A stretch of DNA of 24,000 nt from Tahibacter aquaticus (GTDB taxonomy: Bacteria; Pseudomonadota; Gammaproteobacteria; Xanthomonadales; Rhodanobacteraceae), in contig NZ_SNZH01000019.1 of assembly GCF_004363655.1 (NCBI RefSeq), forward strand, positions 1-24,000, read 5' to 3'. The notes beneath the pieces were generated by a model. It was given only the letters and a program-made list of their open reading frames with translations. It ran no database searches and was not told the DNA's origin. Below are positions 4,665 to 21,115 of the stretch, one piece after another; position 1 is the stretch's first letter; each line of letters opens with the position of its first letter. A program made the translations under genes and the position numbers.

Positions 4665-4733
4665 CAATAACCAACAAAGATTTATTGCAATCTGTTCACC
4701 TATATACACAAACTTATTGAAGGAATTGACACC

Positions 4734-5606: not shown

Positions 5607-5708
5607 GCTATTGCGCGCAACCCCGACGAGCGCGCGCTGCTCGTGCACTACCGCCGTCTTCCGGCCAGCAAGCGTGGCGCGTGGCTGGAGCTGATCCGGC
5701 GCGAATAG
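5607..5708 (+). pseudogene. 3' fragment of the IS-split XRE regulator gene
   Basis: Reading GCT ATT GCG CGC.. from the duplicated GCTAT gives AIARNPDERALLVHYRRLPASKRGAWLELIRRE* (stop 5706-5708). This is in frame with 2644..2900 once the IS and one target duplication are removed. Confidence 0.8.
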
Positions 5709-5789
5709 CCTCGAAACACGCGAGACGCCTCCGCAGCAAAACTCGTCAACTCTGCTCGCCTAACGTGGAGTGAGAGGTTCGGCGCGCTC

Positions 5790-6794
5790 GTGACACCTGC
5801 CTTCCCAATGCTCGGGTACTACACCGGCGAGCTTCGGGGAATGGCAATGTGGAAACGCTGGAGAACCTGGGTAATGCTTGCCCTGTTGGTCTTGCTGAAC
5901 ATTGCGGCCTGGGACATACGGACTGCACCTCAGCAGCATGCAGGAGTGATCCCGCTGTATCAGCACCAGCAGGATGGTGTCACTCAGTACACCGACCTAA
6001 AGCCCGATAGCTTCTATTATCGAAGCATCTGGTACTCCTGGGCTGTTGCCCTGTTCACCGGTTTCGTATTGCCCTTCATTGTGGCTTACCTTCTGCCGTG
6101 GCTGTGGCACCGAAGGAAGCACCTCATGCGAGGTATTTGGCGCGCTTTGGACAGCAGGAAAAAAAGGGCCCTTGCCACCTGCGTTGTTCTGTTTGTTGTA
6201 CTCAACATTCTTGCTTGGGACATAAAAACTTCGCCCTTTGAAGTTGCCGGGCCCATCACGCTCTACCAACACAAGATGGAGGCAGACGGCACGGCACCGT
6301 ACACGCAGCTATGGCCAAGTAAAATAGTTTACCAAAATCCTTGGCTTACTTATGGTTGGGCGATCTTCGTTGGCTTTGTCTTGCCGTTCGCACCCGTCGT
6401 CTTGCCTTGGCTATGGCGACGGTTCCGGCATGGCCCCGGTCGATCAACCTCAAGCTCTCTACAGGGAAGCAAAGTGGGGGCCGCCCTGGGCACCTTGACC
6501 CTGCTCATAGCCTTCAATGTCCTAGCTTGGAACTGGGCCGAATCCAGCGAGAAGGGCAAGTTGCTCATCGTGCTGGAAGAGCGGGTAGCTCGTGAAAATG
6601 TAGGGTTTCAGAGGTACGACGCTACGTACTACTCTGGCATCGCCCCAGGAATCCGCTTTCCCGACGTGGGCACCTCTGTGCTCGCCTCGTTCTTCGTCGG
6701 CGAAATCCTGCCTTTCCTGCTTGCCATCGCGCTGTTTCGACGCCGACAGCCGCCGGCCCTTCCGCTGCCCCCTGTCGCGGGAGCACCGCGATGA
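5790..6794 (+). CDS. Integral membrane protein, three tandem two-TM modules (6 TM); family not recognised
   Basis: 334-aa ORF with a GTG start at 5790 (GAGAGG ~12 nt upstream); alternative ATG starts at 5808 or 5841 are possible. Six hydrophobic helices carry the repeated motifs LNIAAWD/LNILAWD/FNVLAWN and GFVLPF/GFVLPF/GEILPF. The stop overlaps the next gene's start (ATGA at 6791-6794). Confidence 0.8.
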   Translation: MTPAFPMLGYYTGELRGMAMWKRWRTWVMLALLVLLNIAAWDIRTAPQQHAGVIPLYQHQQDGVTQYTDLKPDSFYYRSIWYSWAVALFTGFVLPFIVAYLLPWLWHRRKHLMRGIWRALDSRKKRALATCVVLFVVLNILAWDIKTSPFEVAGPITLYQHKMEADGTAPYTQLWPSKIVYQNPWLTYGWAIFVGFVLPFAPVVLPWLWRRFRHGPGRSTSSSLQGSKVGAALGTLTLLIAFNVLAWNWAESSEKGKLLIVLEERVARENVGFQRYDATYYSGIAPGIRFPDVGTSVLASFFVGEILPFLLAIALFRRRQPPALPLPPVAGAPR

Positions 6795-8746
6795 ACTTAG
6801 ATACCCTTTGGATGACGCTTCAAGTCGTCATCATTATTGTTCTCGCCATCTTCGTCGCGTATGCCGTGTCAGTTTGGCGTGATCGACGTGCCATTCAGGC
6901 CCTGCTAGACGCGGTAGATTTTTACTCTACGGTCGCCCATGGAACTGCCGACTGGAATCGCAATGCCTTCCCCGGCATCAAGCCTGGTCCGCTCTTCTTA
7001 GGCGCAGCCAATGGCAGCGCGATGTACTACGACGGTGACCAGCACCTGATAACCATTGCCCCGACTAGAACGGGCAAGGGAACCTGCCACATCATTCCCA
7101 ACCTGCTGACCTACCCGGGCAGCATGGTCGTAAACGACATCAAGGGAGAGAACTACAAGCTGTCCGGAGAGAGACGCGGCCACTTCGGTAAGGTCTTCCG
7201 ATTCGCGCCCTTCGAGAACGACACCAGTGGCTTCAACCCGCTGGACTTCGTACGACGAGGCACGCCCGCCGCATTCGATGACGCCATGCTCATCGCCGAC
7301 ATGCTCATCGTGCCAGGGAAAGATGAAGAAGAGGGCAATCACTGGAAGGAAGCCGCCAAGAACCTATTGGCAGGCCTCATCGGCTACGTCAGCGAAACTG
7401 AGGAAGGCGAGCGGAACATGCAGCGCGTCCGCCAGTTGCTGACGCTCAATCAGAAAGCATTTCTTGAATTCGTCCGAGACAAGATGACGGCTTCGAAATC
7501 CGCCTTCGTCGTGCGCGCGGCCAACATACTGCTACAGAAGGCTGACCGCGAGCGTAGCGGCGTTGTCTCGACGGCACAGGCGCAGACCACTATATGGGAT
7601 AGCGAACATCTGTCGACAGCAACAAAAGTTAGTAGTTTTGGCCTTGAAGAGCTGCGTGACCAGGTGGCGACCCTCTACATCATTATTCCCCCGGAACATC
7701 TGAGCACCTACAAGGGGGTGCTGCGCGTCGTACTCGGACTAGCCCTATCGACGATGACCAGGCAGTTGCCAACACGGAACGACCGACCACCGCTGACCTT
7801 CCTGTTCGATGAGTTCCCGAGCCTGGGCTATATGCAGCCCATCGTAGACGGCATGGCCTACCTCGCTGGCTACGGCTGTCGGCTTTGGCTCTTCGCGCAA
7901 GACCTCGGCCAAATCCGTGAGACTTACGGCGACAAGGCCACCTCGCTACTGGCCAACTGCGGAGCGCGCTCCTTCTTCGGCGTTGCCGACTACGAAACTG
8001 CCGAATATGTCTCGAAGATGGTCGGTCAGAAAACCATTCGAACTTCATCCAGAACCTTCAAGACCAGCAAAATTTTGTTCTGGGCTGACGTTTGGGGCGT
8101 TGAAACCCAGAGTCTGCAATATGTCGGCGTGCCGCTTATCACGCCCGACGAAGTCATGCGAATACCGACTTGGGGCGATCAGCAGCGGCAAATCGTATTC
8201 CTACAAGGACAACGCCCGGTCTTGGCGTACAAAATCCCTTACCAGGATGTAGCAGTCTGGGCTGCTGCTGCGGTGCGTGCGCCGGTGTCGGTGCAGCTCA
8301 ACCAGTCGCCTATGCCGCCAAGCGATGTGCCAGAGGCTTCACAACAACCGGAGGTTGTAGCTGCAACTGGCACGGCTAACAGGGGGGTGAAAATACCCCT
8401 TGCAACCAAGCCGGGGTCTGCTTACATAAAAGGAGGCAACAAGCGAAAGGGTCAGGGGATGACCGCGACTTACGAACTCATTGAAGAATCCGAGGCCAAC
8501 TCGGAGAAAATGCACGAAAGCATGGTTCAATCAGCACAGCGTGCCCGCGAGGCAGAGCAAAAAGCAAAAGTACTGCAAAATGAACTTGCGACGTTGCCGT
8601 CTCAAGACCCAAGACGAGAAGGCTTGCTAAAACATATCGAGCTTTTGCAACTCATCGTCCAAACCGCTCGCGAAAACGTGTCGGATGGCCGCCTGGTATT
8701 GGATGCCGAGAGTGCTTTTGCAAAACGCCTCAAGGATGGATCATGA
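6791..8746 (+). CDS. traG: Type IV secretion coupling protein (VirD4/TraG family ATPase) with single N-terminal TM helix and long charged C-terminal tail
   Basis: The 651-aa product shows these motifs: HGTADW, Walker A ITIAPTRTGKGTCHIIPNLL, VVNDIKGENYKL, NPLDF, Walker B-like PLTFLFDEFPSLG, and RLWLFAQDLGQIRETYG. One hydrophobic segment spans residues ~8-28. The C-terminal ~150 aa are rich in E/K/Q/A heptad-like sequence. Confidence 0.92.
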   Translation: MNLDTLWMTLQVVIIIVLAIFVAYAVSVWRDRRAIQALLDAVDFYSTVAHGTADWNRNAFPGIKPGPLFLGAANGSAMYYDGDQHLITIAPTRTGKGTCHIIPNLLTYPGSMVVNDIKGENYKLSGERRGHFGKVFRFAPFENDTSGFNPLDFVRRGTPAAFDDAMLIADMLIVPGKDEEEGNHWKEAAKNLLAGLIGYVSETEEGERNMQRVRQLLTLNQKAFLEFVRDKMTASKSAFVVRAANILLQKADRERSGVVSTAQAQTTIWDSEHLSTATKVSSFGLEELRDQVATLYIIIPPEHLSTYKGVLRVVLGLALSTMTRQLPTRNDRPPLTFLFDEFPSLGYMQPIVDGMAYLAGYGCRLWLFAQDLGQIRETYGDKATSLLANCGARSFFGVADYETAEYVSKMVGQKTIRTSSRTFKTSKILFWADVWGVETQSLQYVGVPLITPDEVMRIPTWGDQQRQIVFLQGQRPVLAYKIPYQDVAVWAAAAVRAPVSVQLNQSPMPPSDVPEASQQPEVVAATGTANRGVKIPLATKPGSAYIKGGNKRKGQGMTATYELIEESEANSEKMHESMVQSAQRAREAEQKAKVLQNELATLPSQDPRREGLLKHIELLQLIVQTARENVSDGRLVLDAESAFAKRLKDGS

Positions 8747-9081
8747 CCACGCTGCAAGAAGAAGAGGTCCGCTGTAAGCGACGCTTACTAGATGCCGTGG
8801 AGCAGAAGAAGAGCGTGGAAGACCAGCTCGTAGCGAAAGAAGACGAGCTAGAAAAAAAGGGCTTCACGCCTGAGCTTTGGGCGAAAGTCGATAAGCTACA
8901 AAAGCAACGCGCCGAACTCATTTCTTTAGTGAGTGCCCGAGGAGCCGAATGGCGAGAGGCAAAAGCAAACCTAGACGCTGAGCATCAGCTTGAAGAACGG
9001 CGCGCCCGTGAAGCCGAAAGCCAGAAGGCGCGTGAGCAAGAACGCGCTAAGGGAAAGGAAATAGACGACCTGGAACTTTAG
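8743..9081 (+). CDS. Small highly charged coiled-coil protein, translationally coupled to the T4CP gene
   Basis: 112-aa ORF. Its ATG overlaps the T4CP stop (ATGA at 8743-8746), with AAGGATGGA upstream. The sequence is dominated by E/K/R/Q/A/L (EDELEKKG.., LEERRAREAESQKAREQERAKGKE). Confidence 0.7.
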   Translation: MTTLQEEEVRCKRRLLDAVEQKKSVEDQLVAKEDELEKKGFTPELWAKVDKLQKQRAELISLVSARGAEWREAKANLDAEHQLEERRAREAESQKAREQERAKGKEIDDLEL

Positions 9082-9117
9082 CGGCGTAGATACACCGCCG
9101 TAATCTGCTCGCGCTCG
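9078..9117 (-). pseudogene. 40-bp relic of the 3' end of a tyrosine-recombinase gene
   Basis: The minus strand reads EREQITAVYLRR*. Positions 9088-9117 are 30/30 identical to 10073-10102 and 27/30 identical to the 3' end of the intact integrase (10621-10650). Confidence 0.65.
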
Positions 9118-9269
9118 GTTTCGGGAAGGCATAGATTGGGCAGCATATAGCTGCCGCCAGCGCGACAACGGCCCGCGCGGCACACTTATGTGGGAAGATT
9201 ACTCTTGCAATTAGGCTCAAGGAAAAGCGCAGCAGTAAGGAGCGAGAGATGATGGATTCGAAGTGGTTT

Positions 9270-9932
9270 TCATGCACCGCGGTCGGCGACCTCGCGGGCA
9301 CGATGCGCAACTAGGGTGATTTTTGCCCACAACTCTTCTGCACTTTTTGCCAATTCTTGTATCTTCTCATCGTCGGTATCTGACCATATGTCAAGGACGA
9401 GCAATGCCTTCTTCCCCAGGAGCAAGGTGTCGCGATCAAAGTCTCGGCCTAATTCGATTGCTTCGGCAAACGTCGCCTCTGATCCTCCTAGCAAGTGCGC
9501 CCGCTCTAAAAACGTCACCAGCTCCTGCTGCGCAGAAAATTCAATACGCGCATCGCCGCTCAAGTATTTGCCCGCGATCTCCCGACTGTTTCCGTAGGCT
9601 AGAAAACGTCCGCCGATCCCGACCCGCGCGCCCCATTCTTCGAGGGGTGGGAGTATTCGCCTCGCGAATGCCCGAGCGGCTGTGACCTCCACTCTGCGTA
9701 GGTCAGCTAGTGCGTGCCCTCGCTGTATGGCGAGTACTAAAAACACTGCCACCAACGTGCCTGCGGACAGCAAGGCTTGCGCCCAGGCCGCGCAGGCACT
9801 TAACCAGCTTGGGTCTTTCATGCATAGCGGCTTGGCGATTCCCCAGAGCTCTAGGCAAAAGATGCCGAGACCAACGACCAGCCCGCCCCAACCAAGTCCC
9901 GCGCTCGCAATCTTCAATGCCCTGCGAATCAC
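9270..9932 (-). CDS. Hypothetical protein with two N-terminal TM helices and a soluble C-terminal domain
   Basis: 220-aa ORF with a GTG start preceded by a strong SD (GGAGGAG, 6-nt spacer). Hydrophobic segments: GLGWGGLVVGLGIFCLELWGI and ALLSAGTLVAVFLVLAI. No family was recognised. Confidence 0.7.
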   Translation of the reverse strand: MIRRALKIASAGLGWGGLVVGLGIFCLELWGIAKPLCMKDPSWLSACAAWAQALLSAGTLVAVFLVLAIQRGHALADLRRVEVTAARAFARRILPPLEEWGARVGIGGRFLAYGNSREIAGKYLSGDARIEFSAQQELVTFLERAHLLGGSEATFAEAIELGRDFDRDTLLLGKKALLVLDIWSDTDDEKIQELAKSAEELWAKITLVAHRAREVADRGA

Positions 9933-10062
9933 AATTCACTCCTCCAGACCGGTCGGGCTGATATGCATTCCGCGATTTACGTTGGGCTTTGGCGGAACAA
10001 ACTTTTGCATTCTACGCCTCACAGAAGGCGCGCAGAGCTAGCGGTGTACTCTCTCATGACCA

Positions 10063-10195
10063 CTATCGCCCAAGATACACCGCCGTAATCTGCTCGCGCT
10101 CGTGGCCGAGCTAGCAGAAAATCCGCAACCTGGCCTCGCGTTCACGAGCCTCGCCGTCGCTCTCGCCACCAAGAAGCGGCTTGAAGTAGGTCCAA
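10063..10195 (-). pseudogene. ~130-bp relic of the 3' end of a related tyrosine-recombinase gene, with an internal stop
   Basis: The minus strand reads ..LGGESDGEAREREARLRIFC*LGHEREQITAVYLGR*. The intact gene reads ..QLGIDDKARDRDARLKISRELGHEREQITAVYLGR*. Nucleotide similarity is clear over the first ~90 bp and then fades. Confidence 0.75.
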
Positions 10196-10332
10196 AATTA
10201 GAAGCTCAACAAGAACAAAGGTGCAGAGATACACTTCGGATGCTAGCGGTTCGAGACAGGTTGACGTAGTCTACTAGCAGACGCACCGCTGCTGAATGAG
10301 TACTTCCAACCGCAAGCCTGGAGGATGCAACA

Positions 10333-10590
10333 ATGGCCAAAGGTTTTCGTTGCCCTGCATGTGGCAAATCTACTGCCACACAGGATAAGGGGGCATATCA
10401 CTGCGGCAACAATGCGTGTGGCACTGTCTGGTGGACTGCGTTCGATAGACCGTCCGCCGGAGCAAAGAAAAAGGGGTTCGAATGCACGTCTTGTGGAAAG
10501 CAAACAGTGCATTCAATCGCCACGGTTGCTGCCGCTGAAATATGGCGTTGCAGTACATGTGCATGGACCCGGATTAGCCCGGTTCAGTAG
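10333..10590 (+). CDS. Small double zinc-ribbon protein (internal duplication)
   Basis: 85-aa ORF with SD GGAGGA 7 nt upstream. It has two CxxC..CxxxC/CxxC units: FRCPACGK..YHCGNNACG and FECTSCGK..WRCSTCAW. Confidence 0.7.
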   Translation: MAKGFRCPACGKSTATQDKGAYHCGNNACGTVWWTAFDRPSAGAKKKGFECTSCGKQTVHSIATVAAAEIWRCSTCAWTRISPVQ

Positions 10591-10610
10591 ACGAGAGCTT
10601 CAATACCAGC

Positions 10611-11492
10611 CTATCGACCGAGATAGACCGCCGTTATCTGCTCTCGCTCGTGGCCCAGCTCGCGAGAAATCTTCAACCTGGCATCGCGGTCGCGGGCCTT
10701 GTCGTCAATACCGAGCTGACGTGAGGTCGGGCCGCCGGCAGCAGGGCAAGGAAAGCCCGTTTCCTCCAGGTAGCGACGCTGCGCATACTGATGCCGTAGG
10801 CCGTGGGTTTTCGAGAGGCCAGCCTTCGCCGTCTGGTGCTTGAAGGTGTTGAGCTGTTCAACATAGAGCTTGTTGGACGGAATCAGCGAGCCGCCTTTGG
10901 CGAAGCCAGCGACCTCCTGGAGCAAGGCCACCTGTTCCGCCGTGCGTATCGGAACCTCGCGCGGCCTTCCGCCCTTGCACCAGGACGCCTTGAGCTGTAC
11001 GACCTGGCCGACTTCAATGGCGACCAACGCGACCTTGGGGCGAAACTTCAGGGCTTCTTCGCGGCGCAGGCCAAAGGCGGCCTGCAAGCGCAGGGCATAC
11101 CGCGTCCAGGGATCAGTGACCCGCTCCAGGCCATCGCCGCCCAACTCAACAGCCTTGGTCTTGTTGGTGACGTACTTGCGGTCAGCAATGCCGTAAAAGG
11201 CGTTGTCGCTGGCAATGATGCCCGGCTTGCCGACCTTTTCGGCCCACCACCGAAGGGCCGCCATGCGGTTCTTCACCGTGCCGACTGACAGGTCTTGTCC
11301 ACGCCAGGACTTCACCAACGCCTCGACGTGCTTCGGCTTGAGGCTGTCGGCAGTCATATTCTGATAGCCCAACCCCTTCAGGTCGTCGGCCATCTTGGTC
11401 AGAGTCTTTAATCTCTCTGCCTGGGTGCCAAAGCTCCCGTCTTTGTTGCGGTAGGCCAGGTGTCGCAGGTCGTATTTCAAGCTCACACGCAT
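10611..11492 (-). CDS. Tyrosine recombinase / phage-type integrase
   Basis: The 293-aa product has an N-terminal SAM-like region (KPKHVEALVKSW..TVKNRMAALRWW). The catalytic signature reads AFGLRREEAL (Arg), KGGRPREVPI, THGLRHQYAQ (His-x-x-Arg), and LGHEREQITAVYLGR* (His..Tyr), with the Tyr four residues from the C-terminus. Confidence 0.9.
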   Translation of the reverse strand: MRVSLKYDLRHLAYRNKDGSFGTQAERLKTLTKMADDLKGLGYQNMTADSLKPKHVEALVKSWRGQDLSVGTVKNRMAALRWWAEKVGKPGIIASDNAFYGIADRKYVTNKTKAVELGGDGLERVTDPWTRYALRLQAAFGLRREEALKFRPKVALVAIEVGQVVQLKASWCKGGRPREVPIRTAEQVALLQEVAGFAKGGSLIPSNKLYVEQLNTFKHQTAKAGLSKTHGLRHQYAQRRYLEETGFPCPAAGGPTSRQLGIDDKARDRDARLKISRELGHEREQITAVYLGR

Positions 11493-11684
11493 TGCCGGAG
11501 TTCCGGTAAGTGTTCACGCCGTCACTGGTGGCTCCGGGAGCCAGCCAGCAACCCCACCTCGATCAGATCGAGGCAGGCAGGGGCTATTGAGCTTGGGCGC
11601 ATCGACCGATGCACCCGCGTTTGTGCCTGTTGGCACCTCCTTTCTACGCAGGTTGTTGACCTGATTGGTTTTCATACGACGGTG

Positions 11685-11960
11685 CTAGCTCCCCTCCTGG
11701 CCGGAAGGGGAAAGCACCCGATGCAGGTTTTTCGCGTGGGCCTGTCCACGTTGAGGGTTTCCCCTCGAACCGTCCTGAAACGCCTGTAGGTTTCGTTTCA
11801 AGCGTTCCGCCTTGCCCCGGCTCATATCGCGTTCGTGGCGCGCCTGGGCTGTCTCCTGATGCGCTTCCATGAGCGCGACCAGCAGACGCGCGTTCTCGCG
11901 GCGGAGGGTTCCGACTTCCGCACGGAGGGCCGCGAGCTGTTCCGCGACGCTGGTCGTCAT
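11685..11960 (-). CDS. Hypothetical small coiled-coil protein upstream of the integrase (start uncertain: ATG 11960 or TTG 11987)
   Basis: Track ORF 11685..11987. The N-terminal half is heptad-like (AEQLAALRAEVGTLRRENARLLVALMEAHQETAQARHE). The C-terminal third is low complexity. No convincing SD was found. Confidence 0.4.
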   Translation of the reverse strand: MTTSVAEQLAALRAEVGTLRRENARLLVALMEAHQETAQARHERDMSRGKAERLKRNLQAFQDGSRGNPQRGQAHAKNLHRVLSPSGQEGS

Positions 11961-12015
11961 GCCTCCATCATTCCGAAATCGTGCCAAAAAATCAATGTAT
12001 ACCGAGGTGTTTCAT

Positions 12016-12052
12016 GCGTCGTCATTGTCAGCTTGGCAGCCAATGACGACGC
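12016..12052. repeat. Perfect 12-bp inverted repeat with 13-nt spacer in ORF-free DNA
   Basis: GCGTCGTCATTG (12016-12027), then tcagcttggcagc, then CAATGACGACGC (12041-12052). Confidence 0.85.
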
Positions 12053-12891
12053 TGCGTGTTGCTACGCCCCCCCGAAAACGCCACGCCGGTTTTGGACAGG
12101 CACGCCGGTTCTTCAGTTTTGTGAAGACTGTTCACGGGCGTCAGGCGGCCAGTACGCCTTCAGACAACAGAGGAGATGAACGCTTTCGTCTAGCGGCAGG
12201 GGGGGGCTCACCCTTCCCCCTTTGTCGTATCCGACAACAGCCGTCTGAGTTCTGTCGGCTACAACCATCCCGAAGCGGTCGGCATCTTGCGGTTCACGCT
12301 ACGCGGCTCGCAGCCGCCTCCGCAGGTGCGTTTCGCAGACCATATAGCTGAGAGGATCGGCGCCTTCACCGCAGCGAGGCATACCGGAGCGTGGTCGAGC
12401 AATCCTCTCACCGCTGTCTGGCCAGCTATTGCCGTAGTAACCGTTGCGTGCTTCTGCGTCCAGCGCACATCGCCTTCTTCTGCCTGGGGTCGTCGTGTTC
12501 TAGGGCTAGCCACCAAATTCTTCCTGACCTAGGCCCTTACCCCCCCCGTGCCGTGTGGCCAAGAAATGGACTCGTTGCCCAACCCGAATCACGCAGATCA
12601 ATCGCGACTACGGCGGAATGCAAAGGAATCACGAAAACTTGTGCTGTCGACGGACGTGTCGGATAGTCGCCCTACTAGCGAACCGCGCTCTCACGCTACG
12701 CTTCAACTGCTGGAGCGATTAGTTCGCAGAGCCTAACGGATGGCGGCAATTTTTGGTGCACGCTCACATTCAAGTTCGCCAGTGTTCGAAAAGCGACTGT
12801 TCAGTTTGGCTCTATCTGCGATTCAAGAATCTGCATAGGAAACCACCAAGCCGGTTGCGTTTTATGATTATCCTTTTAAAAGGACATTCTT

Positions 12892-13530
12892 GTGACTCGC
12901 TCTTACTATCGTATTTATCAGTACCGTCCAGATAGTCAACCACGCGACTTTGATACTTTTTTGGCGAGCCGCGTATGGTCAGCATCTATTGAAAGTCTGA
13001 ATGATCCATTTGAGTTCCATGCCTTTAGTACCCTCGCGTCAAGACCAGAAATGCATGCACAGTTCGCAAGTGCTGGCGTGACATGCTTCTGTCGTGCGCT
13101 TACAAATCCGCTGCTCTGGTCACACTACGCCAACGGCCATACCGGATTTTCTGTTGGATATGATCCTGCACATCCATTCTTCGGTGGCGATAAGGAAATG
13201 CGTATGCGAATTCTGCACGACGTTCGCTACGAAGACATTCCTCCAAACGCCGATTTTCTGGAGGGTGATGACCTGGCTATGGCGGCAGTTCTTACAAAGC
13301 CAACTTGCTGGGCGTATGAGCAGGAGGTGCGACTCATTACGCGAGAATCTAAACGACTTGTCGATATCCCGACGGATGCGATTAAAGAGTTGATATTAGG
13401 TGCTCGAATGTCGTCTGATCGGGTCACTGAGATTGTCAATAAGATCCAATCGATCAACATGAATGTGAAGATTGCCAAGATGCAGTTCTCCAGAGAGAGC
13501 TATGGCGTTAGACCGCAGTGGATCGCATAG
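12892..13530 (+). CDS. DUF2971-family protein
   Basis: 212-aa ORF with a GTG start and AAGGA 8 nt upstream. Motifs YRIYQYR, SLNDPFEF, LWSHYA and CWAYEQEVRL match my recollection of PF11185. It lies in a more A/T-rich segment. Confidence 0.8.
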   Translation: MTRSYYRIYQYRPDSQPRDFDTFLASRVWSASIESLNDPFEFHAFSTLASRPEMHAQFASAGVTCFCRALTNPLLWSHYANGHTGFSVGYDPAHPFFGGDKEMRMRILHDVRYEDIPPNADFLEGDDLAMAAVLTKPTCWAYEQEVRLITRESKRLVDIPTDAIKELILGARMSSDRVTEIVNKIQSINMNVKIAKMQFSRESYGVRPQWIA

Positions 13531-13599
13531 CTTTGGTATGCGCGCAGGTAAGCATTGGCCTACTGGAGGCTGAACCTAAGCCCTAAAAGGACTACGGAT

Positions 13600-14304
13600 A
13601 TGTCGTCGCGCACAAAGGTTCCAGGCTCGACTCAGGCCGAGGTGCTTGTCCAATCTCGTCGCCGATGCTGCATTTGCTACGGACTATCCAAAGACTCCTC
13701 CGTCAAAAAGGGGCAAATTGCCCACCTCGACGGTGATCGGAACAACAACGCATCAAAAAATCTAGCCTTTCTGTGCTTCGACCATCACGACGAATTCGAC
13801 TCACGGACAAGTCAGAGCAAAGGACTTCAGACGACGGAAATAGAGATCTACCGAGAGGAGCTCTACTACACTTTTGGAAGTTGGAGTGCTCAGCTTCATC
13901 GAGACGAGCTACTTAACTTTCTAGCATTCTACGCTGCGGACTACGATGCTATGGCGAAAGCTGCGATCAAGGCCGGACATTCTGTCGTCTTCTATGGAGA
14001 AGAGCTTGCATTTGATGTACTTGTAACTGACCAAGTCGACTACTGTGACGGAGATCTATATCTTCCGCATATTGCTGTACTCGAACTCTTTGCCGCTTGG
14101 GGTTGGCTAACGTTCTCATACGAAGAGCAAAAGGATGAGAATGACATTACGTCAAGGGTTTTAATAAGAGCTGATCGGAAGCCTATTTGCGACGAGGTTG
14201 CGAAACGCCTTCTGACTGCACTTGAGTCCAAGCAAGACGTTTACCAAAGCCTTGCTGCCAAAGCCAAGCATCGAGGGTGGTCGCGTGATGAAGGTAGCCC
14301 CTAA
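13600..14304 (+). CDS. HNH-type nuclease domain protein with unassigned C-terminal domain
   Basis: The ATG at 13600, with AAAGGA 8 nt upstream, is preferred over the TTG at 13555. The N-terminal signature is RRRCCICYG..GQIAHLDGDRNNNASKNLAFLCFDHHDEFD (CxxC, His, Asn-rich, CxxHH). The remaining ~150 aa are unassigned. Confidence 0.75.
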   Translation: MSSRTKVPGSTQAEVLVQSRRRCCICYGLSKDSSVKKGQIAHLDGDRNNNASKNLAFLCFDHHDEFDSRTSQSKGLQTTEIEIYREELYYTFGSWSAQLHRDELLNFLAFYAADYDAMAKAAIKAGHSVVFYGEELAFDVLVTDQVDYCDGDLYLPHIAVLELFAAWGWLTFSYEEQKDENDITSRVLIRADRKPICDEVAKRLLTALESKQDVYQSLAAKAKHRGWSRDEGSP

Positions 14305-14593
14305 CGGCAACTACCGCCACGTCACGAGTCACCGACTGGCTGAACGTCAACCGTCATTACCTCTAGTACGAACGCGATCAAGGCTGACCTCAGGCCACTG
14401 CCCCTTGAAACAGCCCCGATAGGGGCAAGTAACTGCCGTCCGCCTCTCTGCCTTCAATCTGTGGGCTGTGCGGTGAAAATGTTCTACACAATTCCTGCAC
14501 AGGCTTTTTTCTGTCAATTTAATCTTGTAAAAACAAATAGATGCGAATGCATCCTTCCACCGCTGGAAGGACCGACCTTCGCAAACCCAGGAA

Positions 14594-15382
14594 TTGGTCG
14601 CCCTTGATGTGGACTCGATCCACCGCATTGTGTATGACCCGGAGCGGTTTTCCGAAGTCTCCGTTCTCGTCGTCGACTACTTCATGCCGGAAATGGACGG
14701 CGTCACCTTCTGCAAGCGGCTCAACAATCCGCTGATCGGCAAGATCCTGCTCACCGGCCGCGCGGAAGACTCGGTCGCGATCGAAGCCTTCAATTCCGGC
14801 GTGATCGATCGCTTCATTCGCAAGAGCGATCCGCAGGCCATGGCCAAATTGCAAGTCGCCATCCGCGAATTGCAGCAGCGCTATTTCGAGCGCGCCGGCG
14901 CCTTCGTCGCCGAAGCGTTGGCGATGGGGCGATTCTCGTTCCTGCGCGATCCAGCCTTCCGTGCCGTATTCGATTCGGTCGTGGCTACCTTCCAGCCGAT
15001 CGAATCGTATGTGGTGTGCAATCCCACTGGCGTGCTCATGCTCGACGCCTGGGGAGTGGGCCGCTTCTTGCTTGTACAGACCGACGATGATCTGCGCGAG
15101 CAACACGATGTGGCCGAAGATCGCGGTGCCCCGGACAACCTGCTGCGTGCCTTGCGCTCCGGCAGTGCCTTGCCCTGGTTCTGGTCCAGCGGTGGCTTCT
15201 ACAGCCCGCAAATTGCCGACCCTGGCGCAAACCTGTTTCCGGCCACCGCGATACAAGGCGATAACTGCTACTACTTCAGCCTTATCGATCACCTTGAACC
15301 GCTGCAGCTGGCCCATGTGAAGTCGTACCGCAACTGGTTGCGCGAACAGGACAATATCGACATCCCGCCGCGCGCGGGATAG
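14594..15382 (+). CDS. Receiver-domain (LqsR-like) response-regulator protein, apparently 5'-truncated at the island junction
   Basis: The phospho-acceptor region VLVVDYFMPEMDGVTF, followed by GKILLTGRAE..AFNSGVIDRFIRK, lies only ~28 aa after the first possible start (TTG). The frame is closed by a TAA at 14528-14530. The N-terminal acidic-pocket part of a receiver domain is absent. Confidence 0.75.
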   Translation: MVALDVDSIHRIVYDPERFSEVSVLVVDYFMPEMDGVTFCKRLNNPLIGKILLTGRAEDSVAIEAFNSGVIDRFIRKSDPQAMAKLQVAIRELQQRYFERAGAFVAEALAMGRFSFLRDPAFRAVFDSVVATFQPIESYVVCNPTGVLMLDAWGVGRFLLVQTDDDLREQHDVAEDRGAPDNLLRALRSGSALPWFWSSGGFYSPQIADPGANLFPATAIQGDNCYYFSLIDHLEPLQLAHVKSYRNWLREQDNIDIPPRAG

Positions 15383-15511
15383 TCGCGCATCATCGCAAAC
15401 CCTCTCGATTCCGACCGGCCCAAGGCCGGACCGGTCGTCCCGCTGCGGCGCCGTAACCGCAGCCAGCCAGGGATGGCTTGGTCCATAAACTCCCGTGAGA
15501 GGTTTGCAGTC

Positions 15512-16798
15512 ATGTCTATTTCCTTCCCGTCTGTTGTCACCCCTTCCTTCCAGATGCTGCCGGTGCGTTCGCCGGAGCTGCCGGAGTTCGCCCGCCAGCG
15601 CGTGGAGCGATTCCATAACGAGCGCGTCGCCACGAGCTGGAACGGCCGCCATATCCTGCGCGGCGCCAAGCCCGGCGCCAATGCGCTGATGTTGCAGAGC
15701 AATGACTATCTGGCCATTACGCGGCATCCGGAAATTGTCGCCGCGCAGCGCGAGGCACTCGCCTGCGCCGGCAACGGCGCAATGATGTCCGGCCTGTTTC
15801 TGCAGCATGACGACGATCCGCTGCACGTGGTCGAACGCGAACTCGCCCTGGCCCTGGGCAGCGAAGAAACCATCCTCTGCCAGTCGGGCTATGTGGCGAA
15901 CATCGGCCTGGTGCAATGCCTGGCCGGAGAGCGCACGCCGGTCTATATCGACATGCTGGCGCATGCATCGCTGTGGGAAGGCATCAAGGCTGCCGGCGCG
16001 CAGTCGGTGCCGGTTTTCCACAACGATCCGGAGTATCTGGAGCGGCAGATCCTGCGCCACGGCCCCGGCCTGATACTGGTCGACTCTATCTACAGCACAA
16101 ACGGCAGCATCTGCCCGCTGGCGGAATTCGCCACTATCGCACAGCGCCACGGCTGCATCTTCATCGTCGACGAATCGCACTCGCTGGGCACACACGGCGT
16201 GCATGGCGAAGGGCTGGTCGCCAGCCTCGGCCTGAACGACCGCGTGCATTTCGTCACCGCCAGCCTGGCCAAGGCGTATTGCGCGCGGGCGGGCCTGATC
16301 AGCTGCAGCCGCCGCTTCAAGCCGTACTTCGCCTTCGAGTCGATGCCAGCGATCTTCTCCTCCACCCTGCTGCCGCCGGAGCTGGCTGGCATCGACGCTT
16401 CGCATCGCGTGATCCAGCGCGAAGGCTGGCGCCGTGCACGCCTGCAGCACGTCACCCGGCGCGTGCGCGAAGCGCTGCTGGAACTGGGCTATCCGGTACG
16501 CGAAGGCACCGAGCAGATCATCGCGCTGGAAGTCGGCACAGAAGCTGCCGTGATGAAGGTGCGCGATGCGTTCGAGGCGGAAAACATCTTCGGCGCGATC
16601 TTCTGCGCACCGGCCACGGCGAAGAACCGCGCGCTGCTGCGCCTGACCCTGCACGCCGGCCTCGACGACGATGCGGTCAATCGCCTGATCGGCGCCTGCA
16701 CGCGGCTGCGCGACAAGATCGACCTGGCCGACTGGAGCGCATCGCGACGCGAACGGCGTACGGTGAACAAGCCGCAGGCGGCTCTGGAGGTGGCCTGA
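15512..16798 (+). CDS. cqsA: CqsA/LqsA-family alpha-hydroxyketone autoinducer synthase (PLP-dependent, class II aminotransferase fold)
   Basis: Motifs shared with Vibrio CqsA: LQSNDYLA, CQSGYVANIGL, VYIDMLAHASLWEG, HGPGLILVDSIYSTNGSICPL, IVDESHSLGTHG, HFVTASLAKA, PAIFSSTLLP. The ATG at 15512 has GAGAGG 9 nt upstream; the track start at 15473 is possible but has a weaker SD. Confidence 0.9.
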   Translation: MSISFPSVVTPSFQMLPVRSPELPEFARQRVERFHNERVATSWNGRHILRGAKPGANALMLQSNDYLAITRHPEIVAAQREALACAGNGAMMSGLFLQHDDDPLHVVERELALALGSEETILCQSGYVANIGLVQCLAGERTPVYIDMLAHASLWEGIKAAGAQSVPVFHNDPEYLERQILRHGPGLILVDSIYSTNGSICPLAEFATIAQRHGCIFIVDESHSLGTHGVHGEGLVASLGLNDRVHFVTASLAKAYCARAGLISCSRRFKPYFAFESMPAIFSSTLLPPELAGIDASHRVIQREGWRRARLQHVTRRVREALLELGYPVREGTEQIIALEVGTEAAVMKVRDAFEAENIFGAIFCAPATAKNRALLRLTLHAGLDDDAVNRLIGACTRLRDKIDLADWSASRRERRTVNKPQAALEVA

Positions 16799-16847
16799 GG
16801 CCCGAGCCCCATCGCGCTGTTGCACTGGTTGAATGAGTGAAAACCGG

Positions 16848-16872
16848 GCGGCCCGAACAGGGCCGCTTTTTT
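16848..16872 (+). terminator. Rho-independent terminator after the autoinducer synthase gene
   Basis: GCGGCCC (16848-16854), loop gaaca, GGGCCGC (16860-16866), followed by TTTTTT (16867-16872). Confidence 0.75.
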
Positions 16873-16885
16873 CGTGCCTGTCGTG

Positions 16886-17008
16886 CGGTGGCGGTGCAAT
16901 TCGCCTTGCTCATCGCACCCGACGAAAGCAGCGCGTGTCGAGCAGGGCGCGATGAGCGCAGCGAATTGCGCCGAACGATCGTGCGCCGCAATTCGCGCGG
17001 CTCATTGC
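16886..17008. repeat. REP-like intergenic cluster: three ~21-bp units (direct, inverted, direct)
   Basis: The three units are GCAATTCGCcttGCTCATCGC (16886-16906), GCGATGAGCgcaGCGAATTGC (16949-16969, inverted) and GCAATTCGCgcgGCTCATTGC (16988-17008). They lie between convergent genes. Confidence 0.6.
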
Positions 17009-17041
17009 CCGTCATGCGTGCCGCGGTTTGCAGCAAGGATT

Positions 17042-17908
17042 TCAGTGCTCGGGCAGCGGAATGAATTCTGTCTCATCCGGTACAGATGGAAAACGCTGCG
17101 CGGCCCAATCCTGCTTGGCCTGCTCGATGCGCTCGCGGCTGCTGGCCACGAAGTTCCACCACAGGTGACGCGGACCATCCAGCGCATCGCCGCCGAGCAG
17201 CACGACACGGCTGTCGACAACCGCAGTGAAGCTGTCGGCTTGCGCCGCCAGTACCGCCAGTTCGTTCGCCGGCACGGCCTGGCCATCCACCTCGATGCCG
17301 CCGCTGACGACATACAGTGCGCGCTCGGCGTAGTCGGCCTGCAGCGACACGCGGCTGCCGGCGCTGACGTCCATCCACACGTACAAGGTCGGCGACGGCG
17401 CCTGCACCGGCGACTCCACGCCGAAGGCGCGCCCCATCAATACGTGCAGGCTGGCGCCGTCATGCTGCACCCGCGGCAGGCTGCTGCCGGGGTAATGGCG
17501 GAACCAGGGTGCGGACTCGGCCTGGTCCTGCGGCAAGGCCAGCCAGGTCTGCAGGCCGTGCAGGTACTGGCCCTCGGCCTTGGCCTGCGCACTGCCGCGC
17601 TCGGAATGGACAATGCCGCGTCCCGCACTCATGAGATTGATGTCGCCGGGACGGATCGCCTGCACCGTGCCAAGGCTGTCGCGATGCACCATCTCGCCGG
17701 CCATCAGATAGGTGACAGTGGCCAGGCCGATATGCGGATGCGGCCGTACATCGGTGCCGCCGCCCGGCGCCACGTCCAGCGGGCCGAACTCGTCGAGAAA
17801 GACGAACGGACCCACCGCGCGGGCACGCAGATGCGGCAAGGCGCGGCGTACGATCAGGCCACCGCCGATATCGTGGATGCGCGGCTCGATCAGGATGGTC
17901 TGGCTCAT
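17042..17908 (-). CDS. Pirin family protein (bicupin)
   Basis: 288-aa product. The signature GPFVFLDEFGP..RPHPHIGLATVTYLMAGEMVHRDSLG..NLMSAGRGIVHSE is the typical pirin N-terminal cupin metal site. Confidence 0.92.
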   Translation of the reverse strand: MSQTILIEPRIHDIGGGLIVRRALPHLRARAVGPFVFLDEFGPLDVAPGGGTDVRPHPHIGLATVTYLMAGEMVHRDSLGTVQAIRPGDINLMSAGRGIVHSERGSAQAKAEGQYLHGLQTWLALPQDQAESAPWFRHYPGSSLPRVQHDGASLHVLMGRAFGVESPVQAPSPTLYVWMDVSAGSRVSLQADYAERALYVVSGGIEVDGQAVPANELAVLAAQADSFTAVVDSRVVLLGGDALDGPRHLWWNFVASSRERIEQAKQDWAAQRFPSVPDETEFIPLPEH

Positions 17909-17950
17909 GGCTCAACCCTGTATGGCGCCGACCGCACTGGCGCATTAATG

Positions 17951-17978
17951 AAAAACGCCACGAATCGCTTCGTGGCGT
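17951..17978 (-). terminator. Rho-independent terminator downstream of the cold-shock gene
   Basis: ACGCCACGAA (17955-17964), loop tcgc, TTCGTGGCGT (17969-17978). The plus-strand A-run at 17951-17955 gives TTTTT after the hairpin on the minus strand. Confidence 0.7.
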
Positions 17979-18008
17979 TTCGGACTCCCCCACGCAACGG
18001 CAGTTTCT

Positions 18009-18218
18009 TCAGACGGCGCTGACTTCGTCGGCCTGCAGGCCCTTCTGGCCCTGCACTACCTTGAAGCTGACCTTCTGGCCTTCCTGCAGGCTCTTGAAAC
18101 CATTGCCGACAATGGCGCGGAAGTGGACGAAGACGTCCTGGCCATTCTCACGGGCAATAAAGCCAAACCCCTTGGCATCGTTGAACCACTTGACGGTACC
18201 AACCTCACGATCCGACAT
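18009..18218 (-). CDS. CspA-family cold-shock protein
   Basis: The sequence [36 protein letters not shown] contains the RNP1 and RNP2 motifs. The ATG at 18218 has GGGAGAG upstream; the track start at 18233 adds 5 unlikely residues. Confidence 0.93.
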
Positions 18219-18449
18219 GAAACGCTCTCCCAAGCTCGAAACATAGATGGCCAGGCCATCGCCTTACTGGTTGCAGGGCTCAAGACAAAGCGATGACGCG
18301 GATCAGCCGATCGGTGGCATCGGGTCAAACGTTCAGACCGTGCAAACACAGCGCGAGCAGTCTACTCAAGCTTTTTAACAAAATCGACAGTGTCTGAACG
18401 GCAGCCGACCAGGTCGAAGCCGGCAGCGCCCGTGGGATACCATCGGCAC

Positions 18450-19343
18450 ATGCCCTTGCCCTCTGCTGCGCCCGAGCCGGCGCCCGAATCCTTGTGCGTT
18501 GCCGCTGCCGACGGCCACGCCGCCCAACTGCTGTTGCTGCGCGGCGAGCCCGGGCGAAAGCTGGGCCTGCTCTGGCTACCGGCCATGGGCGTGCCCGCCC
18601 GCAAGTACCGTCACTTTGCCGCTGCGCTGGCCGGGCGCGGCTGGAGCGTGGCCCTGCACGAATGGCGCGGACAGGATTCAAGCAACTGGCGCGCTGCACG
18701 GGCCTGCGACTGGGGTTATGCGCAATTGCTCGCCGACGTAGCCGCCAGCCGCGAGCAACTGGCCGAAGCCGCTGCCGATACGCAATGGATCGTCGCCGGC
18801 CACAGCCTGGGCGGACAGCTCGCCGCTCTGGCATTGGCGCAGCGACCGCAGGACTTCGCCGGCTATGCGATCGTCGGCAGCGGCCATCCCTGGTGGCGCA
18901 CGTTTCCGGGCTGGCATCAGGGCGTGTTGCTGGCGGCAATCGCCGGGTTCCGCCTGGTGTCGGCGGTATGCGGTTACTTCCCCGGCGACAAAGTCGGCTT
19001 CGCCGGACGCGAAGCCCGCGGCGTGATCCGCGACTGGGCCGACAGCGCCGCCAGCGGCGAGTACCGCCCGGCGGCGCTCGATTTCGCCGCGGAAGCACGC
19101 CTGCGCAAAGTGGTCACGCCGGCGCTGGCGCTGCGCCTGTGCAGCGACTGGTATGTACCCGCCGCCTCGCTGGACTATTTGCTGGCAAAGCTGCCTTTGC
19201 TGCAATTGCAGCGCGGCGAGATTGCCGACCGCGAGTTCAGTGGCGGGCGTGCCGGACATTTCGAATGGATGCGCGAGCCGTTGCCAGTGGTGGCGCGTAT
19301 CGATGCGTGGCTGGCGGGGATCGAAGCAACCACGGGGTCCTGA
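18450..19343 (+). CDS. Alpha/beta-fold hydrolase
   Basis: The nucleophile elbow is IVAGHSLGGQLAAL, preceded by LLWLPAMGVPARKY. The start is uncertain: ATG at 18450 is preferred, GTG at 18390 is the track start. Confidence 0.8.
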   Translation: MPLPSAAPEPAPESLCVAAADGHAAQLLLLRGEPGRKLGLLWLPAMGVPARKYRHFAAALAGRGWSVALHEWRGQDSSNWRAARACDWGYAQLLADVAASREQLAEAAADTQWIVAGHSLGGQLAALALAQRPQDFAGYAIVGSGHPWWRTFPGWHQGVLLAAIAGFRLVSAVCGYFPGDKVGFAGREARGVIRDWADSAASGEYRPAALDFAAEARLRKVVTPALALRLCSDWYVPAASLDYLLAKLPLLQLQRGEIADREFSGGRAGHFEWMREPLPVVARIDAWLAGIEATTGS

Positions 19344-19441
19344 TCGGCGCAACAGCGCTTTACGCCTTCCCCTTGCGCAGGCAGGCGTAGTTCCGACAAT
19401 CCTGCAATGGCCCCTGCTCGGCGCTCAGCGCAGCGAACCGC

Positions 19442-20956
19442 TCAAGCCACCACCACCGGAATCTTGCCGATACGCGCCTGCCATTCCCTGGGCCCGGTCT
19501 CGTGTACCGAACTGCCGCTGCTGTCCACCGCCACGGTGACCGGCATGTCCTTGACCTCGAACTCGTAGATCGCCTCCATGCCCAGGTCTTCGAAGGCGAG
19601 CACGCGCGCGGCCTTGATTGCCTTGGACACGAGATAGGCCGCACCGCCGACCGCCATCAGATAGACGGCCTTGTTGTCGCGGATCGCCGCGATCGCCGAG
19701 GGACCGCGCTCGGACTTGCCGACCATGCCCAGCAGGCCGGTCTGCTCCAGCATCTGCCGGGTGAACTTGTCCATGCGCGTGGCCGTGGTCGGGCCAGCCG
19801 GACCGACCACTTCGTCGCGCACCGGATCGACCGGGCCGACGTAGTAGATGAAGCGGTTGGCGAAGTCGACCGGAAGCTTTTCTCCCTTGTTCAACATTTC
19901 CACCATGCGCTTATGTGCCGCATCGCGGCCGGTCAGCAGTTTGCCGTTGAGCAGGATGGTCTCGCCCGGCTTCCAGCTGACGACTTCCTCGCGCGTGATG
20001 GTATCCAGGTTGACGCGACGGCCTTTGGACGCGTCGTAGGTGAGCGTGGGCCAATCGTCCAGCGACGGTGGTTCCAGTGCCACCGGGCCAGAGCCGTCGA
20101 GCACGAAATGCGCATGTCGCGTGGCCGCGCAGTTGGGAATCATCGCTACCGGCAGGTTGGCGGCGTGGGTGGGATAGTCCAGCACCTTCACGTCCAGCAC
20201 CGTGGTCAGGCCGCCCAGGCCCTGTGCGCCGATGCCCAGTGCGTTGACCTTCTCGTACAGCTCCAGGCGCAGCTCTTCGGCGCGATTCGTGGCGCCGCGG
20301 GCGATCAGGTCCTGGATGTCGATCGGCTCCATCAGCGCTTCCTTGGCCAGCAGCATGGCCTTTTCCGCGGTACCGCCGATGCCGATGCCGAGCATGCCCG
20401 GCGGGCACCAGCCGGCGCCCATGGTGGGCACGGTCTTGAGCACCCAGTCGACGATGGAATCGGACGGGTTGAGCATGGCGAACTTGGACTTGGCCTCGGA
20501 GCCCCCGCCCTTGGCCGCGACGATGACGTCGACCTGGGCACCCGGCACGACGCGCATATTCACCACGGCCGGCGTGTTGTCGCGGGTGTTGCTGCGCTTG
20601 CCGGCCGGATCGGCCAACACCGAGGCGCGCAATTTGTTGTCCGGATGGTTGTAGGCGCGGCGCACGCCTTCGTTGACCATCTCCTCGACACCGAGGCTGG
20701 CTTGCCAGCGCACGTCCATGCCGATGGTCAGGAATACGGTGACGATGCCGGTGTCCTGGCAGATAGGCCGGTGGCCTTCGGCGCAGAGGCGCGAATTGAT
20801 CAGGATCTGCGCCATCGCATCGCGCGCCGCCGGCGACTCTTCGCGCTCGTAGGCGGCAGCAAGATTCTTGATGTAGTCGACCGGGTGGTAGTACGAGATG
20901 TACTGCAGGGCATCGGCGATGCTCTGGATGAAGTCTTCCTGCTTGATCGTGCTCAC
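19442..20956 (-). CDS. fumA: Class I (Fe-S dependent) fumarate hydratase, FumA/FumB type
   Basis: Supporting motifs: STIKQEDFIQSIADALQYISYYHP, ICQDTGIVTVF, and the C-terminal beta-domain GPVDPVRDEVVGPAGPTTATRMD. A GTG start at 20956 gives ~504 aa, the usual length for this family. The 37 residues further upstream in the track ORF look non-coding. Confidence 0.93.
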   Translation of the reverse strand: MSTIKQEDFIQSIADALQYISYYHPVDYIKNLAAAYEREESPAARDAMAQILINSRLCAEGHRPICQDTGIVTVFLTIGMDVRWQASLGVEEMVNEGVRRAYNHPDNKLRASVLADPAGKRSNTRDNTPAVVNMRVVPGAQVDVIVAAKGGGSEAKSKFAMLNPSDSIVDWVLKTVPTMGAGWCPPGMLGIGIGGTAEKAMLLAKEALMEPIDIQDLIARGATNRAEELRLELYEKVNALGIGAQGLGGLTTVLDVKVLDYPTHAANLPVAMIPNCAATRHAHFVLDGSGPVALEPPSLDDWPTLTYDASKGRRVNLDTITREEVVSWKPGETILLNGKLLTGRDAAHKRMVEMLNKGEKLPVDFANRFIYYVGPVDPVRDEVVGPAGPTTATRMDKFTRQMLEQTGLLGMVGKSERGPSAIAAIRDNKAVYLMAVGGAAYLVSKAIKAARVLAFEDLGMEAIYEFEVKDMPVTVAVDSSGSSVHETGPREWQARIGKIPVVVA

Positions 20957-21065
20957 GGTCGCTGGCGGTCTGCTGACGAAAGGCGCGCATTGTAAGCCAG
21001 CCCCGACGCCGCGCCAGGGTATTACGACCATGGGCCAAGGCCGCCTGCCGCCCTGCCCTTCGCCC

Positions 21066-21096
21066 AAAAAAAAGAGCCCGGGACCAGCCCGGGCTC
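21066..21096 (-). terminator. Rho-independent terminator of the large surface-protein gene
   Basis: A perfect 9-bp stem is formed by GAGCCCGGG (21074-21082), loop accag, and CCCGGGCTC (21088-21096). The plus-strand A8 run at 21066-21073 gives T8 after the hairpin on the minus strand, about 20 nt past the stop at 21116. Confidence 0.8.
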
Positions 21097-21115
21097 AAAA
21101 CTGCTGCGCTACTGA

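Follow-up and report, generated by a model that had tools for sequence, protein, structure and literature searches.

The locus studied here raises the question of whether two small genes, lying side by side at the junction between a genomic island and the chromosome of Tahibacter aquaticus, belong to one system. They lie within a 24,000-nucleotide stretch (contig NZ_SNZH01000019.1, positions 1 to 24,000; hereafter the window), and an original prediction made from the sequence alone had taken its A/T-rich part, from about 12.75 to 14.53 kb, for a compact sensor-plus-nuclease module or an addiction pair, composed of a DUF2971 protein (gene 1) and an HNH nuclease-domain protein (gene 2). Our analysis leads to a different reading. 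The A/T-rich 1.8 kb is probably horizontally acquired cargo, and its two genes look like anti-phage candidates that each stand on their own, and not like the parts of a dedicated two-gene system. This reading builds on the domain identities of the two proteins, the conservation of their motifs, the variability of the island slot in which they lie, the position of the junction and the lack of conserved linkage between the genes, all of which were observed directly. The two genes are located as follows.

12892-13530, plus strand: gene 1, GTG start, 212 amino acids (aa), a DUF2971 / PDC-S31-family protein
13555-14304, plus strand: open reading frame (ORF) of gene 2, with the ATG at 13600, 234 aa

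The two genes are seldom neighbours elsewhere

A hidden Markov model (HMM) of the close gene 1 family was run over the 10 kb on either side of gene 2 relatives at 79 distinct genome loci, and gave no match. A plasmid tblastn match later exposed a DUF2971+HNH pair on pAtC58, and because this pair was seen after the close-family HMM had returned zero linkage, a broad DUF2971 profile was rebuilt. With this profile, a DUF2971 gene was found next to 2 of the 82 other non-redundant loci of gene 2 relatives (pAtC58 and Sphingomonas L030), and the remaining 80 had no such neighbour with either gene order counted. At the non-redundant loci carrying the same class of C-terminal domain as gene 2, the count was 0 of 10. 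Starting from the other gene, an HNH-family gene was absent from all 80 metagenome loci at which relatives of gene 1 lie. The conserved co-occurrence or adjacency that would mark a dedicated DUF2971+HNH two-gene system was not found. Non-linkage in other genomes had been named in the original prediction as evidence against a module, and it is essentially what these loci display; the sensor-plus-nuclease module is not borne out, as the two linked loci also lack the C-terminal domain class of gene 2.

The nearest homologues of both genes are solitary, which also speaks against the proposed addiction pair. They are P0121 (74% identity) and P0124 (69%) for gene 1, and P0003 (81%) and L006 (84%, with no DUF2971 gene in the 4 kb upstream) for gene 2. 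DNA similarity to the closest relatives is limited to each ORF and its ribosome-binding site (12878-13526 and 13592-14282), and because it stops at the ORF borders, the two genes appear to have separate histories. Neighbour clustering revealed no recurrent partner of either family, with no conserved neighbour around 83 gene 1 relatives and none for the family that shares the HNH head of gene 2. The tempting two-gene system is therefore better read as two stacked solo genes, which matters for the annotation of defence islands and for the choice of constructs.

In plasmid records, DUF2971 relatives were found on 391 and the HNH family on 10, all of them from Agrobacterium, where the matches occupy corresponding positions on replicons of similar size. 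On the 391 PLSDB plasmids the gene 1 relatives are distant, with about 27% identity, and annotated as DUF2971. Klebsiella accounts for 129 of the records, and 350 of the plasmids are of the non-mobilizable type; the 15 matches listed are Klebsiella plasmids of about 110 kb.

Gene 1 is a DUF2971 protein with conserved ADP-ribosyltransferase motifs

The assignment of gene 1 to DUF2971, originally proposed from the peptides YRIYQYR, SLNDPFEF, LWSHYA and CWAYEQEVRL (all present), is confirmed by Pfam. The protein scores 28.4 bits with PF11185, for which the gathering threshold is 22, and the match covers residues 75-148 of gene 1 and the full profile (1-89). Five PDC-S31 models of PADLOC match as well, the best at 1.9e-36 (124 bits), and PHROG 1762 matches at 5e-37. 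PDC-S31 is PADLOC's single-gene phage-defence candidate, itself only a candidate, with models derived from defence islands, and no mention of it was found in the literature. About 65 close homologues of approximately 212 aa, chiefly metagenomic, share 40-74% identity with gene 1, which is a fresh member of an already known candidate family.

DUF2971 has been assigned to the ADP-ribosyltransferase (ART) superfamily near DarT and AbiGi, with a conserved Tyr and an ExE motif (PMC12522546). In an alignment of 34 gene 1 homologues, Y79 (in LWSHYA) and E143-Q144-E145 (in YEQEVR) are invariant, and Y79 and E143xE145 correspond to the published motif II Tyr and motif III ExE. The AlphaFold 2 model of gene 1 has a predicted local distance difference test score (pLDDT) of 88.6, and its top Foldseek neighbours in the PDB are ART-fold proteins (CteC, Tpt1 and DarT 7omx) with E values of 0.08-0.74 and template modelling (TM) scores of 0.3-0.42. 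As none of these neighbours is significant, the ART assignment leans mainly on the literature and the motifs. We infer that gene 1 is an ADP-ribosyltransferase-fold enzyme. The likeness to DarT includes the proximity of the families in published profile comparisons and the rank of 7omx among the best PDB neighbours of the model (TM 0.40-0.42), but the Foldseek E value for it is 0.74, the motif I histidine is not evident in gene 1, and gene 1 falls outside the DarT family. A search of gene 2 and the neighbouring ORFs for the macrodomain of a DarTG system (DarG) gave no match.

The closest functional precedent is Aristaios, a 316-aa DUF2971 protein from a lactococcal plasmid, which is a single-gene system resembling abortive infection and stops both transcription and protein production of the phage (PMC11381338, PMC13064643, PMC12967558). 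No other experimentally tested DUF2971 protein was found in the literature. Gene 1 is like Aristaios and PDC-S31 in its above-threshold DUF2971 domain, its five PDC-S31 matches, its solitary occurrence, its predicted ART-like core (Tyr, ExE) and its residence on a mobile element, although Aristaios comes from Lactococcus (plasmid pUCCL641_199) and gene 1 is a 212-aa protein of a gammaproteobacterium, a comparison drawn at the family level. By analogy, gene 1 may be a solitary ART-type abortive-infection effector, which upon phage infection would modify a nucleic-acid or protein target so that the infection is aborted. The role of sensor first given to the DUF2971 protein does not suit a predicted enzyme whose one tested relative acts alone. 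With gene 1 and its homologues, a family in which one member has been tested experimentally gains a subfamily of short DUF2971 proteins (212 aa) from proteobacteria.

Gene 2 joins an HNH head to a private C-terminal domain

Gene 2 can be divided into two parts.

13600-13881, plus strand: N-terminal ~94 aa, an HNH_3-like beta-beta-alpha-metal zinc-finger nuclease domain with an SQSKGL extension
13882-14304, plus strand: C-terminal ~140 aa, an alpha/beta domain, confidently folded and seen only joined to this HNH domain

The start at ATG 13600 agrees with the N-termini of the homologues. The HNH peptide quoted originally (CCICYG..IAHLDGDRNNNASKNLAFLCFDHHDEFD) is present, and the HNH residues are C23, C26, H42, N49, N54, C59, H62 and H63. 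Pfam scores of gene 2 itself lie below threshold, at 15.4 bits against 24.8 for HNH_3 and 12.4 against 21 for HNH_2. At the family level the signal is clearer. A total of 526 homologues were found, and in 84 non-identical relatives R4, R21, R22, C23, C26, Q39, H42, N54, L55, C59, H63, E80 and L88 are invariant, with H62, N49 and D44 kept at 90% or more. The canonical CxxC...H...N...CxxH zinc-finger HNH signature is present across these 84 sequences, 20 of which match HNH_3 at E≤1e-3. PADLOC returned weak matches of gene 2 to HNH models, including ZorE (5e-5, the best), an effector endonuclease of the cyclic-oligonucleotide-based antiphage signalling system (CBASS) and 'HEase', and PHROG HNH models also matched weakly. 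With Foldseek, the N-terminal domain matched the HNH domain of Cap5 at a probability of 0.84. The HNH-type domain claimed for gene 2 is thus supported by motifs and family-level matches, not by the Pfam threshold of the protein itself.

The signature is shared with ZorE (type II Zorya), Cap5 (CBASS) and HNH_3 homing endonucleases such as I-HmuI, and the arrangement of an N-terminal catalytic domain followed by a variable C-terminal domain is that of modular HNH enzymes. In contrast to these effectors, gene 2 has no ZorA/ZorB, cyclase, SAVED domain, or phage, intron or intein context, its C-terminal domain is private, and its matches stay below the family thresholds. It is flanked by gene 1 and a truncated response-regulator gene in place of the adjacent ZorA and ZorB of a type II Zorya system. 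Gene 2 resembles the Zorya, CBASS and homing systems only in the HNH catalytic module.

The C-terminal part was described in the original prediction as unassignable, and it has remained so in Pfam, PDB and BFVD. Residues 110-230 are modelled at pLDDT >90, and Foldseek found no neighbour of the domain in the PDB or BFVD at E≤1e-3. PDB profile searches (queries A1, A2 and A3) yielded nothing or spurious coiled-coil matches. Among 1.84 billion representative proteins the domain has only 34 matches. Three of these are long repeat proteins and spurious; the others are short or fragmentary proteins. Matches of about 210-280 aa align from approximately residue 95, like gene 2, and HNH motifs lie upstream of the domain in both matches whose sequences were read. 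The three that were rejected as relatives comprise two apparent translated tandem repeats and one helicase-linked repeat protein (P0375, P0390 and P0391).

The HNH head of about 95 aa (consensus RRRCCxCFGL...GQIAHLD...NL.FLC..HHD.YD..TSQSKGL) is found elsewhere fused to WD40 propellers, a Tle1-like lipase, TRADD-N, AbiTii, NERD and DUF4143 (L006-L084), and also to a frequent unnamed C-terminal domain of about 130 aa (GPNxG...GMNVxFxGxY). The HNH family to which gene 2 belongs is therefore modular, unnamed and unannotated, and gene 2 can reasonably be regarded as a new candidate for defence. It may act as a solitary HNH_3-type zinc-finger nuclease, with target recognition or regulation provided by the private C-terminal domain. 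A more far-reaching proposal, which we put forward tentatively and consider somewhat less likely than its opposite, is that the HNH module defines an unrecognised family of single-protein immune nucleases, in which one head is combined with interchangeable C-terminal sensor or targeting domains, and that the member in the window is a functional anti-phage or anti-plasmid gene. In a bolder variant, gene 2 may cooperate loosely with DUF2971 ARTs, as hinted by three independent adjacencies described below.

The genes occupy a variable cargo slot at the end of an island

The island features that bear on the origin of the two genes are as follows.

12083-14481, strand not applicable: variable cargo slot, at the island end next to the integrase, made up of 795 bp without a gene, gene 1, gene 2 and a 177-bp spacer
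14482-14567, strand not applicable: conserved island terminus of 86 bp, 78% identical to sister element L171 and overlapping the crossover region
14594-15382, plus strand: LqsR-like response-regulator gene, chromosomal, with its 5' end cut off by the island, marking the junction
10611-11492, minus strand: tyrosine integrase of the island backbone, beside the cargo slot (Pfam Phage_int_SAM_2 7.1e-19, Integrase_1 2.6e-10)
6791-8746, plus strand: type IV coupling protein (TraG/VirD4) of the island backbone (Pfam T4SS-DNA_transf 2.3e-84)

The response regulator has 262 aa in the window, whereas almost all of the 120 homologues listed have about 335-354 aa; the nearest of them (94% identity, 341 aa) comes from a Rhodanobacteraceae metagenome-assembled genome (MAG), and further ones share 82-87% identity. 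This MAG (L170) is free of the island and carries a HisKA kinase, the response regulator and an aminotransferase in this order, and its synteny with the window (8631-12593 versus window 14561-16798) begins at 14561, which is 204 nt into the regulator gene, at codon ~69 of the intact gene, so that about 68 codons have been lost. As synteny starts there, the position originally given for the island/chromosome junction is confirmed at approximately 14561. The crossover with the chromosomal target lies at about 14556-14572, and in a three-way alignment the window switches from island-like to response-regulator-gene-like around GCTGGAAGGAC.

A look-up of the integrase, which is identical as a protein in L171-L174, led to the sister element L171 (SRR845265). 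Its backbone is 98.8% identical to the window over 5607-12082; similarity ends at about 12082 and returns only at 14482-14567. Between these flanks (L171 4012-7508) the sister element carries a complete Gabija system (GajA 1.5e-298, GajB 5.9e-265) and four other ORFs, encoding a Gamma_PGA_hydro protein, a VCH_CASS14 protein and two proteins without known identity. Because Gabija lies between the same flanks, the slot in the window is likely to hold defence cargo, and no other feature of the context argues as strongly for a defence role of genes 1 and 2. Together with the PDC-S31 match of gene 1, it makes the defence role first proposed for the two genes plausible. That one island backbone occurs with Gabija as well as with DUF2971+HNH amounts to a natural experiment, which marks the slot as a defence hotspot, and the slot context nominates the unnamed HNH family for testing. 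As in the defence hotspots of integrative and conjugative elements and prophages, near-identical backbones carry different cargo of foreign composition between conserved flanks at the element end, whereas here a single alternative cargo was found, and the view of the slot as a hotspot rests on this one swap between two variants of the element.

The A/T-rich stretch noted originally is clearly visible in 500-nt windows, where GC is 0.596-0.608 at 11.25-12.75 kb, 0.47-0.51 at 12.5-14.5 kb, and 0.57 past about 14.5 kb, climbing to 0.63-0.68. The dip is occupied by the two same-strand ORFs (gene 1, 0.485; gene 2, 0.495), compared with 0.571 for the island backbone (5790-12082) and 0.653 for the chromosome (14561-24000). 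In 15 of 15 cases the homologues of gene 1 or gene 2 are below the GC of their host loci, which fits mobile accessory genes. The earlier claim that the pair came to the island by a separate acquisition requires refinement. The genes are compositionally foreign and have histories separate from each other. As to position, the slot is bounded by the conserved integrase module and the 86-bp terminus, and the pair is therefore cargo carried inside the island and was not inserted between it and the chromosome. In the scenario we favour, the element would be integrative and probably conjugative or mobilisable, and would carry the cargo in a variable 'defence slot' at the end nearest its integrase. 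It would have inserted into, and truncated, the LqsR-like response-regulator gene of a Rhodanobacteraceae-type chromosome. The window does not reach the left end of this element.

We also considered whether a 15-nt direct repeat (12402-12416 and 14551-14565) bounds an islet integrated on its own by tandem accretion, and rejected it, the local-alignment score of 20 equalling the shuffle mean of 19.6.

Weighing the alternatives

Several observations weigh against two independent defence genes as we propose them. The Foldseek support for the ART fold of gene 1 is non-significant (E 0.08-0.7, TM 0.3-0.42), the Pfam HNH score of gene 2 itself is under threshold, and its N-terminal domain is modelled poorly (pLDDT 44-74). 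Several full-length homologues of gene 2 lie amid housekeeping genes and not in defence islands. In the window, on pAtC58 and on a Sphingomonas contig, three replicons unrelated to one another, a DUF2971 gene adjoins a gene of the HNH family, which exceeds random gene placement (rough expectation ~0.02 for 82 loci) and may reflect a loose functional link. Finally, since the 69-bp gap between the genes has no predicted terminator, they may be co-transcribed at this locus, although such co-transcription is not required.

Among the other explanations, the one that survives best, although we regard it as unlikely, is that one or both genes do not serve defence, gene 1 being a secreted ART effector and gene 2 either a selfish HNH endonuclease of the homing type or an accessory that processes DNA for the element. 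An effector role is predicted for about 18% of DUF2971 proteins (PMC12522546), and the island encodes a type IV secretion system coupling protein; HNH_3 is the homing-endonuclease type of HNH, in line with the weak 'HEase' and PHROG matches, and some homologues of gene 2 are isolated insertions amid housekeeping genes. However, tblastn of gene 2 against 50,697 phage genomes gave no match, which makes the homing reading unlikely, and gene 2 is free-standing in chromosomal or island contexts, with no intron or intein. The C-terminal domains of the HNH family also include the conflict-system domains TRADD-N, AbiTii, NERD, WD40 and Tle1-like, Gabija fills the slot of the sister element, and gene 1 strongly matches the defence-island-derived PDC-S31 models.

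Scarcely behind it, and also improbable, is a real, unnamed two-gene defence system in which one protein senses or marks a target and the other cuts it. The local arrangement is suggestive. As first described, the genes lie on the same strand 69 bp apart, they are alike in GC, no terminator is predicted between them, and an identical TAAAAGGAC motif precedes both. The adjacencies elsewhere add to this case. On pAtC58 the DUF2971 gene lies directly upstream of the HNH-family gene, straight after QatC/QatD, and the DUF2971 proteins of pAtC58 and L030 align over their full length at 26% identity, with their HNH partners 50% identical. Against this, the gene order is reversed in L030, and the partners in both replicons come from other DUF2971 subfamilies and another HNH C-terminal domain class. 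The partner is absent at 80 of 82 HNH-relative loci and at all 80 DUF2971-relative loci, the ten loci with the C-terminal domain class of gene 2 have no DUF2971 gene, the closest homologues are solitary, and DNA homology ends at the ORF borders. In PADLOC, DUF2971 is modelled as a candidate of one gene, and Aristaios acts without a partner. Three adjacencies are what co-residence in defence islands yields, and the view of genes 1 and 2 as a module is mostly to be answered in the negative. The DUF2971+HNH pair is best read not as a system but as a small defence islet of two independent candidates. Each gene would then act alone against phage, a function that the slot and the domain families suggest, and none of these findings overturns current views.

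A toxin-antitoxin or addiction module stabilising the island, with the DUF2971 ART as a DarT-like toxin and gene 2 as its antidote, or the reverse, is very improbable: DUF2971 resembles DarT toxins (PMC12522546), the pair sits at a mobile-element end, where addiction modules are common, and VapBC lies near the pAtC58 pair, but close homologues of gene 1 persist without gene 2 or any conserved neighbour, so that no dedicated antidote appears to be needed, neither a macrodomain nor any other domain for removing ADP-ribose is present in gene 2, and the sister element is maintained with Gabija instead of the pair.

Other observations at the locus

Gene 1 is preceded by an AAAGGA Shine-Dalgarno-like motif 7 nt upstream of its start. 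The TAAAAGGAC motif, which includes the Shine-Dalgarno-like AAGGA, lies at 12876-12884 and 13584-13592, and its presence ahead of both genes contrasts with their separate evolutionary histories. A promoter and terminator scan gave a signal no better than background, and a search for tRNA genes and Rfam families across the window found none. The gene-free start of the slot (12083-12877, ~795 bp) has a normal GC of 0.59, with no called gene and no Rfam match, and a 66% identical patch at 12239-12417 is the sole part of it in common with L171.

The pAtC58 pair is located in a defence island (L169, Agrobacterium fabrum C58 plasmid At, record 12059-24346), in which a KAP P-loop protein, QatC, QatD, the DUF2971 protein (ATU_RS24040) and the HNH-family hypothetical protein (ATU_RS24035) are followed by an integrase and VapBC.

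On the chromosomal side, the island parts the truncated response regulator from the HisKA kinase in a Cqs/Lqs-type quorum-sensing cluster, and the next gene after the regulator encodes an alpha-hydroxyketone autoinducer synthase (NCBIfam NF005526, 548.8 bits with a cut-off of 428).

On the island side, the coupling protein matches NCBIfam TraG/VirD4 families at E values down to 5.6e-82, yet under their curated score cut-offs. The backbone is interrupted by an IS21 element (3123-5522; IstA 3123-4664, IstB 4734-5522) that L002 and L171 do not carry. It also encodes a 493-aa ankyrin-repeat protein (916-2397, minus strand), which is kept in the sister elements and shows weak NCBIfam matches to MzaA and Legionella AnkY.

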